NCBI GenBank assembly: GCA_963664435.2
Contig: CAXXKM010000003.1
Span: 320,001 to 384,000 of the forward strand
Direction of reading: 5' to 3'
DNA length: 64,000 nt
Source of the DNA: Longimicrobiales bacterium
GTDB taxonomy: Bacteria; Gemmatimonadota; Gemmatimonadetes; Longimicrobiales; Gaopeijiaceae
Below the pieces are notes generated by a model, which was given only the letters and a program-made list of their open reading frames with translations, was not told the DNA's origin and searched no databases. Below, piece by piece: positions 44,803 through 50,894 of this stretch. The translations under genes were made by a program, and so were the position numbers. Within the stretch, counting starts at the first letter, position 1. Every line of letters starts with the position of its first letter.

Positions 44803-45852
44803 CTACCGTGGCCGCGCCAGCGGTCTTCCATCCAGCTCCCATCCCGGGTCGATTCCGATTCCGAGGTGATCCAGTGCCGTCGCGGCCACGTCCACGATGA
44901 ATGCGGGTCCGGGGGGCGGCCAGTTCGCGGTGTCGGAGCCGCTCGCAAGGATGAAGATGGTCATCTCCTCGGGTGAGTCGCCGCCGTGGCCGCCGTCCGC
45001 GCGCCTGCCGTGGTCGGTGCTGATGAGCACGAGCCAGTCCTCGTTCATGTAGCCGGGCCGCGCCCTGACCGCCTCGACCAGCATGCCCACATGCCGGTCC
45101 GCGAGCGCGATCGCGTCCCGGTACTCCGCGCCGATGGAGCCGTGCTGGTGGCTGGTCTCGTCGGGGTTGCCGAGGTAGACGAACATGGCGTCGGGGTCGG
45201 CGATGGCGAGATGGCGCACGGCCTGCGCGGTGAGTTCGGCATCGGCTTCGGCCCAGCCCAGGTCGTAGCCGTCCAGCACGACCCGGGTATCGACCGAAGG
45301 CGGGAGCACAGGATCGCCGCCTTCGAGTTCCGCGAGGGGCAGCCAGTCCAGGGCGGCGAAGGTGGCCAGAGCGGGGCGCTCCTGCTCCACGCGCGTCAGG
45401 AAGCTCGGCCAGGCGTCGTAGTCGCGGCCGGTGAAGTTGTTGTCGGTGACCCCGTGCTTTTCGGGCCAGACGCCGGTGAGCATCGAAGACCACGACGGGC
45501 CGCTCACCGACGGAGTGGTCGTGCGCGCTTCCGCCGTGTACCACCCGCTCGCCGCCAGCGCGTCCATGTTGGGCGTCGGGACCTCGGCGAGCACGTCCGG
45601 CCGCACGCCGTCAATGCCGATGAGGAGGACCTTGGGGGTGGCCTGGGTCGCGGCGGGCGTGGGTGAGGCGCAGAGGAGTGCGGCCATGGCAGCAGCACCA
45701 CAGAGTAGTGCGGCCCTGCTCCACGCCCGGGCGAGCACCGCAACCGTCCCCGACGCCCGGATGAGCGCCACGAATCCCGGTCCGATCGTCCGCGGGCATG
45801 GGCATGTGGCCCTCCCGCTGTGGCCGGCAGGCCGGCGAATCACTGTGGTCAT
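44803..45852 (-). CDS. Alkaline phosphatase superfamily (nucleotide pyrophosphatase/phosphodiesterase-like) protein
   Basis: LLIGIDGVRPD, SVSGPSWSSMLTG, DETSH, STDHG..HGG. Confidence 0.88.
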   Translation of the reverse strand: MTTVIRRPAGHSGRATCPCPRTIGPGFVALIRASGTVAVLARAWSRAALLCGAAAMAALLCASPTPAATQATPKVLLIGIDGVRPDVLAEVPTPNMDALAASGWYTAEARTTTPSVSGPSWSSMLTGVWPEKHGVTDNNFTGRDYDAWPSFLTRVEQERPALATFAALDWLPLAELEGGDPVLPPSVDTRVVLDGYDLGWAEADAELTAQAVRHLAIADPDAMFVYLGNPDETSHQHGSIGAEYRDAIALADRHVGMLVEAVRARPGYMNEDWLVLISTDHGRRADGGHGGDSPEEMTIFILASGSDTANWPPPGPAFIVDVAATALDHLGIGIDPGWELDGRPLARPR

Positions 45853-46057
45853 CGCTCGCTCATCAGCTCCACAAGCCGCTCCACGCAGATGTTCCATCCC
45901 ACTTCGTGCCCTTCCCTGTCCTCCGGAGTGGGAAAGCCCTCGTGGGAAAGCCGGACTTCGGTGCCGTCCTCGGCCCGCGCGAACTCTACCGTCACCAGGG
46001 TCTCCGCCCTCATCGGGTGCGGCTCCTTCCAGCTCCAAGTGTAAGCCAGCCGACGCG
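45849..46057 (-). pseudogene. 3' half of interrupted SRPBCC/AHA1-family gene
   Basis: RRLAYTWSW..ETLVTVEF..GTEVRLSHEGF..HEVGW..L. Confidence 0.88.
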
Positions 46058-46151
46058 ACATGATTAGTCGATTTTGCAACTCGTTGTAATCAGTGAACTT
46101 GCGAGTTTCGTGGGCCGGATTCCCGCCGAATGATTCCCGCTGACCGGGATT

Positions 46152-47315
46152 TCAGCCGCGAACGTTTCTGCGGCCTTCCAGTGCCGTCCTGAGTTGTCCG
46201 GCGTCCGGCCTCTGGTAACACCTGAGCACCGTCTGTGCATCCTTCCACCCGCCAAGCTCACATAGCACCTTGAGCGGAAGGTCCATCAGGTCGCTGGCGA
46301 ACTTGCGCCTCAGCGAGTGCCAGCCCCGCCGCGGCTTCGGCTCCAGTCCCGCGAGCGTCTGGGCCTTCCTCCACCACTGAAAGGCGGTAACGCGGTGCAT
46401 GCACCGCGTGGCATCCTTCGACGAAGGCAGTACCGGCGTGTTGCCTTTCCCGGTGCCCATCCCGCGCGCTTCCTCCAAGGCGGCGAGGGCCTCGTCGGTC
46501 AGCGGCGTGACGTGCTCGTAGCCCGTCTTCTCGTGTTCCGCCCGCCAGCGTACTTCACGGCCCTCGAAGTCGATGTCCTCCCACCTGAGGTTGCGGATGG
46601 CTCCGATTCGGTGCCCGGTTTCGTGCGCGAGCACGAGGGCGACGTGGAACCGCCAACCGACCTGCCGCGAAACCCCGAGCATTGCCCGGTACTCGTCCTC
46701 GGTGAGGACGACCCGGGCGGGGTTCTTCTCCCTGGGCTTCCTGAGGCCCTTCAGCGGGTTCCTGTCGAGCAACAGGCGGCCCCGCTCGTCCTTCGACCTC
46801 TCGGCCCAGTTGAAGACCGCCATGAGGAACGTCAGGTCCCACTCGATCGTCCGGTTGCCCACGGGCCTGCCCGAACGGCCGGCCCTTCCGGCCCGGCGCG
46901 CTTGGATGAACCGATCCCAATCGCGCTGTGAGAAGGTGGCGGGGTCGCGGTCCCGTCCGAAGAAGTCGAGGAACATCGCGGTCGCGACCCTGTCGCGCTC
47001 GCGCGTCCGCTTCCCCTTGGTCGGGGTGACCTCCTCTCCGTAAATGTCAAAGAGCGTGCCCAGAGTGAGCGGCTCGGGCTCGGCCTCGGCCTTGCCGTTG
47101 GGCTCGTGGACCGCGAAGCCCGCGGCGGCCTCGTCGGCCTGCCGCTTCGCGCGAGCCCAATCGCGGTGCCCCAGCGACCGGCTCCGCCTGCGCCCGTTCT
47201 CCCTCCACTCGATCTGGAGCAGGCCGGTTTTCGGATCCGGAAACACCCGGACCCGGTTCCGGCCCCATTCTCCGGCGCTGTAGCTGCGCCGGCTTCGTTT
47301 CGTGCGTGCCATCAT
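46152..47315 (-). CDS. Tyrosine recombinase/integrase
   Basis: Catalytic R (TGHRIG), K (EKTG), HSLR, GGW, Y (RCYQ); GGAGGA RBS; N-terminal arm-binding-like region. Confidence 0.95.
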   Translation of the reverse strand: MMARTKRSRRSYSAGEWGRNRVRVFPDPKTGLLQIEWRENGRRRSRSLGHRDWARAKRQADEAAAGFAVHEPNGKAEAEPEPLTLGTLFDIYGEEVTPTKGKRTRERDRVATAMFLDFFGRDRDPATFSQRDWDRFIQARRAGRAGRSGRPVGNRTIEWDLTFLMAVFNWAERSKDERGRLLLDRNPLKGLRKPREKNPARVVLTEDEYRAMLGVSRQVGWRFHVALVLAHETGHRIGAIRNLRWEDIDFEGREVRWRAEHEKTGYEHVTPLTDEALAALEEARGMGTGKGNTPVLPSSKDATRCMHRVTAFQWWRKAQTLAGLEPKPRRGWHSLRRKFASDLMDLPLKVLCELGGWKDAQTVLRCYQRPDAGQLRTALEGRRNVRG

Positions 47316-48529
47316 TCGATTCCTCCGAGTGATGGACTGCACGATCCGCCTGCCCGAAAGCTCGCGGGGAAGCGGCTTGTCCGCCAGTCGCGTGCGGAAG
47401 GCGGTTTCCGGCCCCGAAACCGCCACCGGGGCCGTAGCGGGAGTGTCCGTCCGACATCGGAGGCGGGCGGACACGAAAACGTCCTCTCAGCGGACACGCC
47501 CGCGATTCCCAATGTCGCTGCCCAACTTTCGGTTGCGAGATGGCCACGGGAGCGGCCGTGGCGCGCGGGAGCCTGCGGGAGTGACCGGAGCAACCCCCCT
47601 CTTTCGATGCCTGGCGTGCCATCGGGGAGGATCGACATGGACAGGCCCATGCCGTCCTCCGAGGGAGGGTTGCTCCGGTCCAGCGATCCTTGGCAGGAAG
47701 GCTTTCAAGACAGAATGGGCGAGCGCGTGCGGAGCACTCCGTCCGCGACCGTGGCCTGCCTCTCCCTTGCGGTGAGGGGCGGCCGGCTCGGACCCTCGTT
47801 CGGGCGGCGGGTCTCCCGGCGTCCGAACGAGGGTGGGCAAGCGAAGCGCGGCAGCCCGGTCCGGGGCCGGGAGGTTCTGGTCGAGGGCCGGAGCGAGGAT
47901 CTCGACCGATACCAGAAGGGCGAGCGGGCCGTGCGCCGACAGCGCCCGGTAAATCGAGCGTGCGGCACGCGACCGGTGGCGAACCCGGTTCCCGTCAAGC
48001 GAACGGCAACCATGGTCGTGCGGGCGGCCACCCGATCGGGATGGGCCGCCACGGGGGGACGGGGGGCGACGCCCCCGCCCGCGCAATCCACCGGAGCGCG
48101 GGTCTGTTGGGGATCGAAGGGGCAACGTCCCTCGCCAGCCCGAATGTATTACTTCGGGTAGGCTGGCTTGTGCGCCTAACGGTGCTCCAAGCCAGCCCTG
48201 CGGCCGCCCCGCAAGAGACGCTCCCGCGAGCCGCCCGAGAAGGCGGTGGCCGGGCTGTCGCGGGCAAGCTCCTCAGGCCTCTCGGTTGTCGACCGCACGG
48301 ACGGCGGGAGGCAACGGGCAACCCGTCACTTCTTTGCGACGGCGGCGCTCCGAGCCGCGCACCGATTTCACCCTACTCCCTCCTCGGAGACCCGGGGGCT
48401 CGTCGGTCCTGGGCGATCCTACGGCCGTAGGTTTTTCGAAGACCAGTCCGGCGCGCCGCCTCTGGAGGGTCACCGGGAAGGTGACGGGCTTCCGCTATCC
48501 GACAGCGGTGCGCCGGACTGAGTGAAGGC

Positions 48530-49084
48530 CTACGTGGTCACTCGGCCCTGGAAGTAGCAGAACCCGCCGGCGTTGGTCCAGAACGTGATGTCCGTCAGCC
48601 GATTGGAATTCCACTTGACGTACCGCACTGCCAAGCTGCTCGTGTTGGTGTCCGGGTCGTAGGTCCAAGGGGAACCGGAATGGTCACCGTACCTGCTCCA
48701 CCGCGTTCCCGCGATGTAGTAGCAGGCGTTCGTGTTGGTCCCAGTTCTGCCGTCAATGCGTTTGCAGTCGCCCCCGGACGCGACGCCGACGCCATTGTTG
48801 CCGGGGGGACTCGCGTTCGTGAAGTAGACGCGGAAGTGATGGCCGTGGCTGGCGGTCCGCCCCGGCACCGTCACGTTCAGATCACCGAGGAGAGTGTTGG
48901 TCAGGTCGCGGTCCAGCGACACTTCGCAGCTCCCAGCCTTGGCGTCGGCGGCGGTCTGCGTCGCGGCGAGCCTCTCGCCCTCGACGGGCGTGGCGTTCTG
49001 GTCGGCGGGGATCGCCTCGGTCGGCATGTCGGCGCACGAGGACAGCGCCACGGCGGACAGGGCACAGAGGATGGTCTTCTTCAT
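48530..49084 (-). CDS. Hypothetical lipoprotein (element cargo)
   Basis: MKKTILCALSAVALSSC lipobox, AAGGAGAG RBS, four further Cys. Confidence 0.75.
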   Translation of the reverse strand: MKKTILCALSAVALSSCADMPTEAIPADQNATPVEGERLAATQTAADAKAGSCEVSLDRDLTNTLLGDLNVTVPGRTASHGHHFRVYFTNASPPGNNGVGVASGGDCKRIDGRTGTNTNACYYIAGTRWSRYGDHSGSPWTYDPDTNTSSLAVRYVKWNSNRLTDITFWTNAGGFCYFQGRVTT

Positions 49085-49685
49085 CGCTTCTCTCCTTGGG
49101 TCGGGGGGTGTTTGAAGTGGTTGATGTCGGATAGGTGAGCCCATCGGGCATCCCTTGACACGAAAATCAGGCGGAACGTGTCGCCGGGACCCAATCCGCT
49201 GGGGATCAGCGCCCAGTCGTCGGGCACCACGGTGGCGTTCTGCTGCCGGGCCTGCATGGCCATGGCGTTGGCTGCGACGGGGAGCGGCACGTCGGCCAAG
49301 GACAGCTCGGCTTCGTCGGCGAACGGCGCGGCGGTCGGGATCTCGCCGCACGAGACGCCTGCAAGGCCAGCCAAGAGGAACGGGAACGCCCGAAGCGGGC
49401 GGCGCTCCGCTAGCGGCGGAGCCGGTTCCGTGGTTGGAAGGGTGCCGCAGGCGTCGCCGCGGCGGAAGGAATCAGGCGGAGCGGCTAGAAGCCGAAGGCG
49501 CTTCCATCGAGACGTACGACAGGCTCGGCTCGGCTCGGCTCGGCTCGGCTCGGCTCGGCTCGGCTCGGCTCGGCTCGGCTCGGCTCGGCTCGGCTCGGCT
49601 CGGCTCGGCTCGGCTCGGCTCGGCTCGGCTCGGCTCGGCTCGGCTCGGCTCTTAACGGTGCTGCGTAATCGATACCCATGGCCAT
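49081..49685 (-). pseudogene. Putative phase-variable secreted-protein gene, out of frame across an SSR and apparently 3'-truncated
   Basis: RBS GGAGGGAG and ATG 49685; SSR; downstream frame gives FPFLLAGLAGVSC and VPDDWALIPSGLGPGDTFRLIFVS. Confidence 0.65.
49522..49651. repeat. Perfect pentanucleotide SSR (GGCTC)26
   Basis: 130 bp uninterrupted. Confidence 0.98.
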
Positions 49686-49725
49686 GTCAACTCCCTCCGC
49701 TACCATCGGCTCCTCAGGACCATGA

Positions 49726-49755
49726 AAGATAACCGACCGTTCCCGCCGGGAGCAA
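49726..49755 (-). promoter_or_regulatory. sigma70-type promoter upstream of the SSR-containing gene
   Basis: TTGCTC-N18-TATCTT on minus strand, ~40 nt before ATG 49685. Confidence 0.5.
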
Positions 49756-50166
49756 ACTACTCCCCCGGGTGACCGGCGGAGTTCCGGAGAAAGCGGCCGC
49801 TCCCGAATCGGGCGGCGCGTTTGGGTTGGGCTAGTGGCCAGCGCCGCCTCGGCGACCTCCGTCCATCGACACGCGGAGCATGTCCCGGTTATCGGCGGTG
49901 CAAGTGTCCCGGAACGGCGAGTCCCGCGCAGTATGGGCGGTGCCGTTCGCCTCGGGAGCGACGAGGGAGTCGTCCGCGTCGCCAACGCCCCGAATCCCCT
50001 CGGATCCGTGTCGGGCGGCTCCCTCGATTTCCCGTCAAACGATTCCGGCTTTCCGGTCATTCCGGCACGATCCAGCAAGATCCAGCACAACGGCAGAAAG
50101 GGCGGATCATGCAGTCCTGTATGACTTTAGATGATTCCCTGCCGTGATTCTGGCCTCTGGCGTTCC

Positions 50167-50407
50167 GCCGACGCGGCGGATCGACCTCGCGGTAGGTGCC
50201 GTGGGCGGTCACGTGACCGTCCTCGACCTCCAGGCAAATCGAGTAGCGCCCGCCTACGCGCAGATCGACATCCACCTCCACACCCGCGCTCGGATCGGGA
50301 TGCGTCCAGCGTTCCACTTTCTCTCTGCCGGTCCAGGCCGCGAAGACCTGCTCGGGCGTTGCCGGGATGGTGCTGAGAAGGTGCAGGGATGTCGAGTTGC
50401 GACTCAT
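50167..50407 (-). pseudogene. 5' half of interrupted SRPBCC/AHA1-family gene
   Basis: PATPEQVFAAWT..RW..DLRVGGRY..GTYREVDPPRR. Confidence 0.88.
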
Positions 50408-50451
50408 GGAACTCGCTCTGTGGTGTTGCATAGGATTCCGGGGCTCAGTTC

Positions 50452-50640
50452 GTGAGGCGGGCCAGACGATACGCCAGACGAGCCGACCTGGAGGTACGCT
50501 TCGACCCCAGCCGCGGCAAGGGAAGCCATGGGTTGCTCTACCTCGGAGAGCATCGCACGGTCGTAAAGCGCGGCGAACTGCGCCGGGGCACGTTTCGAGC
50601 AATGCTGAAGCAGCTGGATGTCCGGGAGGAGGACTTGTGA
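50452..50640 (+). CDS. hicA: HicA-family toxin (original start possibly lost)
   Basis: RGKGSH motif, GTFRAMLKQL. Confidence 0.8.
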   Translation: MRRARRYARRADLEVRFDPSRGKGSHGLLYLGEHRTVVKRGELRRGTFRAMLKQLDVREEDL

Positions 50641-50894
50641 TGCGGTACGCCTATCCATGTGAGATGACCCCTGAGGCGGACGGCGGGTACTCTGTCTCGT
50701 TTCCGGACGTGCCGGAAGCCTTGACCTGCGGCGACGATCAGGTCGAAGCACTGGCTATGGCGGAAGACGCGCTGGCGGTTGCGCTTGGGGCCTACGTTCG
50801 TGCCCGGGAGGACATCCCGACGCCGGGACCTCTGCTGCCTGGGCAGGTCATGGTTGCGGTACCGTCGGCGGTGGCGGCCAAGCTCGCGACGTAG
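50640..50894 (+). CDS. hicB: HicB-family antitoxin, ends before the C-terminal HTH
   Basis: GGYSVSFPDVPEALTCGD..EALAMAEDAL..IPTP, ends at AAKLAT. Confidence 0.85.
   Translation: MRYAYPCEMTPEADGGYSVSFPDVPEALTCGDDQVEALAMAEDALAVALGAYVRAREDIPTPGPLLPGQVMVAVPSAVAAKLAT

Follow-up and report, generated by a model that had tools for sequence, protein, structure and literature searches.

A relaxase-less integrative element that splits an SRPBCC gene, probably at a look-alike of its lineage's usual oriT target

When an integrase-bearing element splits a gene whose reading frame its removal would restore, is the element a switch for that gene, or was the gene struck for some other reason? The question is raised by a window of 64,000 nucleotides from a Longimicrobiales bacterium (GenBank assembly GCA_963664435.2, contig CAXXKM010000003.1, positions 320,001 to 384,000), in which an SRPBCC/AHSA1 gene is cut in two by an element of 4,118 bp that is bounded on both sides by a 9-bp repeat. 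A first-pass annotation had suggested either an on/off switch analogous to the skin and nifD elements or a low-specificity tyrosine-recombinase transposon. We found that the SRPBCC gene holds a look-alike of the origin of transfer (oriT) that relatives of this integrase usually target, so the gene was most likely split by mistake. With a probability of roughly 0.8, a relaxase-less integrative element of an oriT-targeting kind, from a large family in a Longimicrobiales-type genome, has here inserted at a secondary site. Coordinates are those of the window unless a G or L label is given; G000 is the source genome, and other G labels are relative genomes.

The interrupted gene and its junctions

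The interrupted locus consists of the following features.

50167..50407, minus strand: 5' half of the SRPBCC/AHSA1 gene, codons 1-80 (PF08327; 86% identity to the G005 ortholog over the 5' half)
50167..50175: left junction copy of the 9-bp repeat; the 7-bp crossover overlap is placed at 50169-50175, its register being taken from the pairing of family ends
46059..46061, minus strand: ATG in the right end of the element, in frame with the 3' half (a 70-aa restart is possible)
46049..46057: right junction copy of the 9-bp repeat, followed by a nick-site look-alike in the host gene
45849..46057, minus strand: 3' half of the SRPBCC/AHSA1 gene (PF08327)
44803..45852, minus strand: downstream gene of the phosphodiesterase/alkaline-phosphatase family (PF01663), whose start overlaps the SRPBCC stop

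Fused through a single repeat copy, the two halves give 441 nt, or 146 codons, free of stops. The 5' half covers positions 2-61 of the AHSA1 domain (E 4e-12), and the 3' half covers positions 60-124 (E 2e-12). The 9-mer by itself is common, with 386 copies in G000. The split goes beyond chance because the domain runs on across it, the locus is exactly syntenic with the uninterrupted gene of G005, and family-type ends stand at both junctions. G005 is colinear on both flanks; its SRPBCC gene is whole, and the protein is 87% identical. This bears out the first-pass claim of a gene split by an element with a frame-restoring repeat. The overlap of the SRPBCC stop with the downstream start, claimed there too, recurs at all five relatives' loci examined, in one of them with the stop shifted by one codon.

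The ATG at 46059-46061 is also present in the right ends of unrelated paralogs, and its place as a restart for the 3' half is probably due to chance. A sigma-70 scan found no promoter-like site. At position 50438, 31 bp upstream of the SRPBCC start, G005 is longer by about 208 bases, and promoter DNA may have been lost from G000 at this point. A divergent hicA-hicB pair lies beyond it (50452-50894).

The usual target of the integrase lineage and the SRPBCC site

The twin of the element in G005 (92% identical over 2,445 nt and 95% over 1,323 nt, with a 97%-identical integrase) is inserted in a hairpin that we predict to be an oriT of the ColE1/MOBP type. A hidden Markov model (HMM) of this hairpin gave 33 matches in G000, upstream of the mobilization (mob) module, and the stem arms covary by eye. 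A complete sibling of the element encodes NikA/MobC and a PF03432 relaxase, together with an overlapping MbeB-like frame and a weak match to MbeD; the integrase comes next. The oriT-like site of this sibling precedes mobC by 131 bp, on the opposite strand. Of four plasmids checked, three (ColE1 and two others) have the hairpin's terminal motif likewise upstream of mobC on the opposite strand, and the fourth has a variant. When the sibling relaxase was used as a query, 3,409 plasmid records matched, and 3,253 of these are typed as mobilizable. G000 holds ten relaxase loci outside the element. The ColE1-type mobilization region has the layout mobC-mobA/B/D and belongs to MOBP5 (PMC9282650, PMC5935869). 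Complete siblings agree with it in gene layout, in Pfam families and in having the motif upstream of mobC and opposite to it in strand; however, the ColE1-type region is plasmid-borne, whereas the siblings carry their module in chromosomally integrated elements, beside an integrase.

Two other identities of the hairpin were considered. No MOBF/TrwC relaxase was found in G000, so the hairpin is not linked to that class. A rolling-circle replication origin was rejected because the clusters of open reading frames (ORFs) around the hairpins include relaxases and integrases, whereas the 14 largest of those listed contain no Rep.

To place the integrase, we used a quick tree of 70 integrases (at least 76.5% identity from the first set, and new ones of at least 79.5% with a right end; duplicates dropped). 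The present integrase falls in a 12-row subclade supported by a Shimodaira-Hasegawa-like approximate likelihood ratio test (SH-aLRT) value of 95. Eight of its 11 other members carry the oriT motif at the right junction. Five of these also have an oriT-HMM match at a junction (L016, L018, L132, L134, L149), and three have the motif only. In L132, mobC and mobA adjoin the interrupted oriT. The other three members (L017, L163, L167) occupy unrelated, non-oriT sites, among them a DUF5128 gene in L167. The member at L163:3483-4040 interrupts a gene that has no Pfam match but resembles, by a motif, a CRISPR Cas3-type helicase. In the neighbouring 21-row clade (SH-aLRT 91), 19 members are at oriT by motif (14 of them HMM-backed) and two elsewhere, so that 27 of the 32 other members of both clades are at oriT by motif. 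The hairpin's 3' arm holds the overlap, so insertion there should split the nick region from the inverted repeat and disable the host oriT.

Furthermore, the SRPBCC site resembles this target closely. We trained a weight matrix on 24 oriT sites of G000 that are unoccupied, and the empty SRPBCC site ranked 18th of 9,014,446 positions. All 17 positions above it are oriT training sites, and the SRPBCC site is therefore the best non-oriT match. By eye, 13 consecutive bases of the site are identical to the region before mobC in the Aeromonas plasmid pAhD4-2. The resemblance, including the 7-bp overlap, is spelled by the codons for Arg-Arg-Leu-Ala-Tyr. Two of the 24 unoccupied oriT sites carry the same 7-bp overlap as the present element, and thus this overlap could derive from such an oriT.

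From these observations we infer an off-target history. The integrase would excise a 4.1-kb circle, and the relaxase of a sibling element could act on the oriT of the present one. Transfer would then proceed through an outside mating system; G000, which is 96% complete, gave no match to the VirB4 or VirD4 families (PF03135, PF02534). Reinsertion would favour sibling oriTs beside the predicted nick site, and mimic sites, the SRPBCC gene among them, would be struck at times. Inactivation of the SRPBCC gene would be a by-product of insertion. The first-pass suggestion that the insertion is recent and probably still excisable fits the intact integrase and ends, the stop-free halves and the empty relatives.

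Several points weigh against an off-target insertion of this kind. Eight of the 27 oriT calls rest on the motif alone, and the file used to iterate the oriT HMM contained some occupied junctions, so those matches are not independent. The trees are quick ones, and in the 70-integrase tree the two oriT clades meet only at an open node; in another quick tree they form one clade (SH-aLRT 88). The weight matrix was made after the SRPBCC site had already been seen. The oriT assignment is based on sequence likeness and position, and the nick position within the ColE1 motif is our assumption. A search for an excisionase with HTH_17 (PF12728) gave seven matches, none inside the element. Finally, the reading is drawn from sequence data, and excision, circle formation and integration are predicted steps.

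Alternative explanations

The strongest alternative, although an improbable one, is a tyrosine-recombinase transposon of relaxed specificity that inserts at any match to the 7-bp overlap with a partial core, oriT being merely a frequent site. Four of the 12 subclade members, counting the present one, are outside oriT, and two G000 integrases separated by no change on the tree occupy two unrelated genes with the same overlap. In addition, the two overlaps of L017 differ by one base. This alternative does not account well for the 27 of 32 members at oriT or for the rank of the SRPBCC site above all other non-oriT positions. Moreover, other integrase clades each hold their own conserved, GC-rich target. 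The first-pass transposon is only half right: targets are selected because they resemble a defined site, and their 7-bp overlaps match.

Skin and nifD elements are cases of regulated gene integrity, in which excision restores the gene. A switch of this type, in which the element would stay in the SRPBCC gene until a signal caused its excision and so turned on the operon, is very unlikely here. In its favour, both SRPBCC halves are stop-free, the integrase is intact and the operon overlap is conserved. Contigs of X1 and X5, from two studies, also carry the occupied right junction with zero differences, and one of the two may be the source sample. However, a recent insertion explains both the lack of decay and the occupied junction in two studies. 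The gene is disrupted without a replacement sequence, and excision would restore it, as for skin and nifD; unlike in those, there is neither a conserved target gene nor a dedicated integrase here.

The distribution of the gene also argues against a switch. SRPBCC orthologs are uninterrupted in G003, G005, G007, G009 and L206, and the ortholog in G001 is frameshifted yet unsplit. The whole 3' half is covered in only five of the 14 same-genus genomes that match the locus query, so the gene looks dispensable, within the limits set by incomplete genomes and a DNA query. A homolog was found in 29 of 120 family genomes (28 spanning most of the protein, one of half length in G075), and the gene is absent or broken in many relatives. 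A metagenome scan with the SRPBCC 5' half returned 17 loci, one of them close (L206, intact) and none with this integrase. The G005 twin, with its 97%-identical integrase in an oriT, speaks against a recombinase dedicated to the SRPBCC site.

Frame restoration itself is not specific to this gene. We rebuilt the empty sites of eight other family elements, and removal restored an open frame every time, including that of an MmeI-type methylase (PF20473); a permease, a peptidase and a transposase are presumably also among these targets, judging from their sequences. Conservative site-specific recombination always restores the target and hence its reading frame, and the genome DNA is 68% GC, in which open frames arise readily. 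Precise frame restoration is thus no evidence of regulation when the relatives of an integrase use other sites, and one false gene-switch candidate is removed.

An assembly artefact that placed the element in the gene would fit the highly repetitive family and the summed contig depth over the integrase, far above that of the flanks, but we give it hardly any weight against two junctions with family-type ends and matching overlaps and independent X1 and X5 contigs that span the right junction without differences. Contig placement covered 45000-49500 in four of 22 runs, reached the right junction only, and could not show a joint that skips the element. The X6 contig ends at 46046. The X8 contig (6,042 bp, 55 differences in 893) departs at 46049, with the cargo almost uncovered; this fits, without proving, an empty site in a related strain.

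Element contents, family and relation to known systems

The first-pass annotation had called this a minimal integrase element. This did not hold, since besides the integrase it carries an oriT-like site and a pentamer array, together with one putative lipoprotein gene and a lipoprotein fragment.

50038..50166, minus strand: conserved left end of the element family (HMM match, E 2.5e-30)
49522..49651: pentamer array of 26 units; ten other arrays found have 17-43 units
49081..49374, minus strand: short lipoprotein-like fragment (lipobox by eye; no Pfam match)
48530..49084, minus strand: cargo gene for a putative 184-aa lipoprotein (weak LPAM_1 match, E 0.06, below the cut-off)
48053..48213, plus strand: the element's own unoccupied ColE1/MOBP-type oriT-like site, a hairpin and then a nick-like motif near 48163-48170 (one of the 33 HMM matches in G000)
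47316..48052: stretch that holds mobC-mobA/B/D in siblings; none found in the present copy
46152..47315, minus strand: tyrosine integrase of 387 aa (PF00589)
46118..46140, minus strand: two 9-bp direct repeats in the right end, conserved downstream of paralogs

As first annotated, the integrase has the full catalytic set: R236, K263, H333, R336, W357 and Y367 fall at the catalytic positions in an alignment to XerA 4A8E, with Trp replacing the second His. The 9-bp direct repeats are probably arm-type integrase sites. The mob genes were searched for in the element by tblastn with four sibling mob proteins, which gave no match at E<=1. No Pfam relaxase, Rep_trans PF02486 included, was found among its scanned ORFs, and the ORF list and Pfam scans revealed no mating-pore genes. 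No Rfam family matched positions 45800-50500 at E<=1. Upstream of the integrase, a non-coding stretch (about 47430-47700) recurs in other elements, often inverted.

The cargo lipoprotein gene is also present in the G005 twin and in another G000 element. Pentamer arrays of 17-43 units precede varied surface or lipoprotein cargo (G000 C1:1470225, C2:1089305, C3:15385; L016, L019, L020, L132, L154). L019 and L020 carry the same cargo behind 43 and 32 units, with upstream frames of 83 and 340 aa, respectively. In the present element, the number of units puts the upstream start out of frame. The arrays may be a means of phase variation.

The first-pass annotation had also proposed a search for further copies of the integrase and its ends in the genome and relatives, and a comparison of their targets. 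Both were run; the comparison gave the eight subclade members at oriT and the three at unrelated sites described above. In G000, tblastn with the integrase gave 32 matches including itself, that is, 31 relatives, with full-length paralogs about 67-80% identical. Matches were found in 17 of 18 same-genus genomes, from 4 to at least 47 each (matches, not copy numbers). Most named relatives belong to Longimicrobiales or to other Gemmatimonadota, Ca. Palauibacter among them; a few are bins of Acidobacteriota and Gammaproteobacteria. End models detected 44 left ends (E<1e-15) and 28 right ends in G000. For 18 of the 28 right ends, a left-end partner has the identical 7-bp overlap, compared with a mean of 2.2 and a maximum of 7 in 1000 shuffles, and clean removal is therefore a family trait. 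The present element is the shortest of the G000 end pairs. Complete members have the layout left end, cargo, oriT, mobC-mobA/B/D, integrase and right end. Near the contig start at G000 C3:811-816, a right end runs straight into a left end with a shortened spacer; this may reflect a tandem, the junction of a circle or a join made in assembly.

We compared the element with known systems. The IME_oriT of streptococci and Staphylococcus aureus are integrative mobilizable elements (IMEs) whose integration occurs in another element's oriT, at its conserved nic site (PMC5704250). Of these, 53 of 64 are at oriT and the rest in unrelated IME or chromosomal sites (PMC7563843), and such sites, when secondary, are named oriT* (PMC7563843, PMC5704250). 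The principle, an integrative element entering the oriT of another mobile element, is the same here. The present copy lies outside oriT, and eight of its 11 nearest relatives are at oriT by motif, the nick position being assumed. IME_oriT carry a Rep_trans relaxase, whereas the present copy has none and its siblings have PF03432. IME_oriT target the MobT-type oriT of integrative conjugative elements (ICEs) in Firmicutes, whereas the target here is the ColE1/MOBP-type oriT of siblings, and the relatives are mostly Gemmatimonadota. The element thus works like IME_oriT but is not a member, by relaxase type and target type, and its family extends oriT-targeting integration from Firmicutes and MobT to a ColE1-type oriT in Gemmatimonadota.

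By the broad definition of an IME (PMC5704250), the element has its own integrase, defined ends, an oriT by likeness and position, and no mating-pore genes of its own. A canonical IME has its own relaxase, which this copy lacks. The Vibrio mobilizable genomic islands mobilized by SXT are 18-33 kb, encode an excisionase and use the relaxase of the ICE (PMC5704250). The element resembles them in its own tyrosine integrase and oriT and its lack of a relaxase, but differs in its size of 4.1 kb, with no excisionase found and no VirB4 or VirD4 match in G000. Helper-embedded phage-inducible chromosomal islands (HE-PICIs) disrupt a gene, target other mobile elements and show off-target events (PMC10111431), which the present insertion resembles. 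Low-specificity tyrosine transposons of the Tn5520/Tn6218 type use AT-rich, unconserved targets (PMC5704250), whereas the targets of this family are GC-rich and conserved per clade. We found no paper on this element family; this is weak evidence of absence, with most subscription journals outside reach.

Other integrase clades target integrase genes, mbeD, mobC, element left ends, tRNA genes and a palindrome, as assigned by pattern and by eye, a script having left 53 of 105 rows as 'other'. With so many close integrases of known, differing targets, the family would be useful for studies of specificity or as new integration tools. One joint reading, which stands at an even balance, is that in these Gemmatimonadota dozens of paralogous integrases have radiated within each genome, and that every one of them is adapted to its own conserved target within the family (oriT nick region, mobC, mbeD, several integrase-gene positions, left end). 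Elements would disable and ride one another as mutual parasites, and host genes would be struck where their codons mimic those sites. If this is true, the family is a natural series for how a tyrosine recombinase changes its target.

Further sites of the family were observed. The palindromic site is the target of 17 of the 105 integrases surveyed (for example G000 C1:1349195, C1:1452214, C2:830852 and C3:18940). Some clades insert into sibling integrase genes at three positions, some reversed (G000 C2:112663, C1:1571099; L030, L110, L086, L164-L170). At G000 C3:1151046-1153557, two family integrases converge on one tRNA gene, each apparently using its own side. The same site in a permease-like gene is occupied in G000 (C2:111569-141259) and G005 (L118) by one integrase clade, and one gene is likewise occupied by one clade at G000 C3:1250531-1264388, L105 and L116. 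For conserved gene interruption, these two sites are stronger candidates than that in the SRPBCC gene. The G000 integrases that are unchanged between two unrelated genes with the same 7-bp overlap are those at C3:59478-72489 and C2:111569-141259, and this pair is a sign of recent movement.

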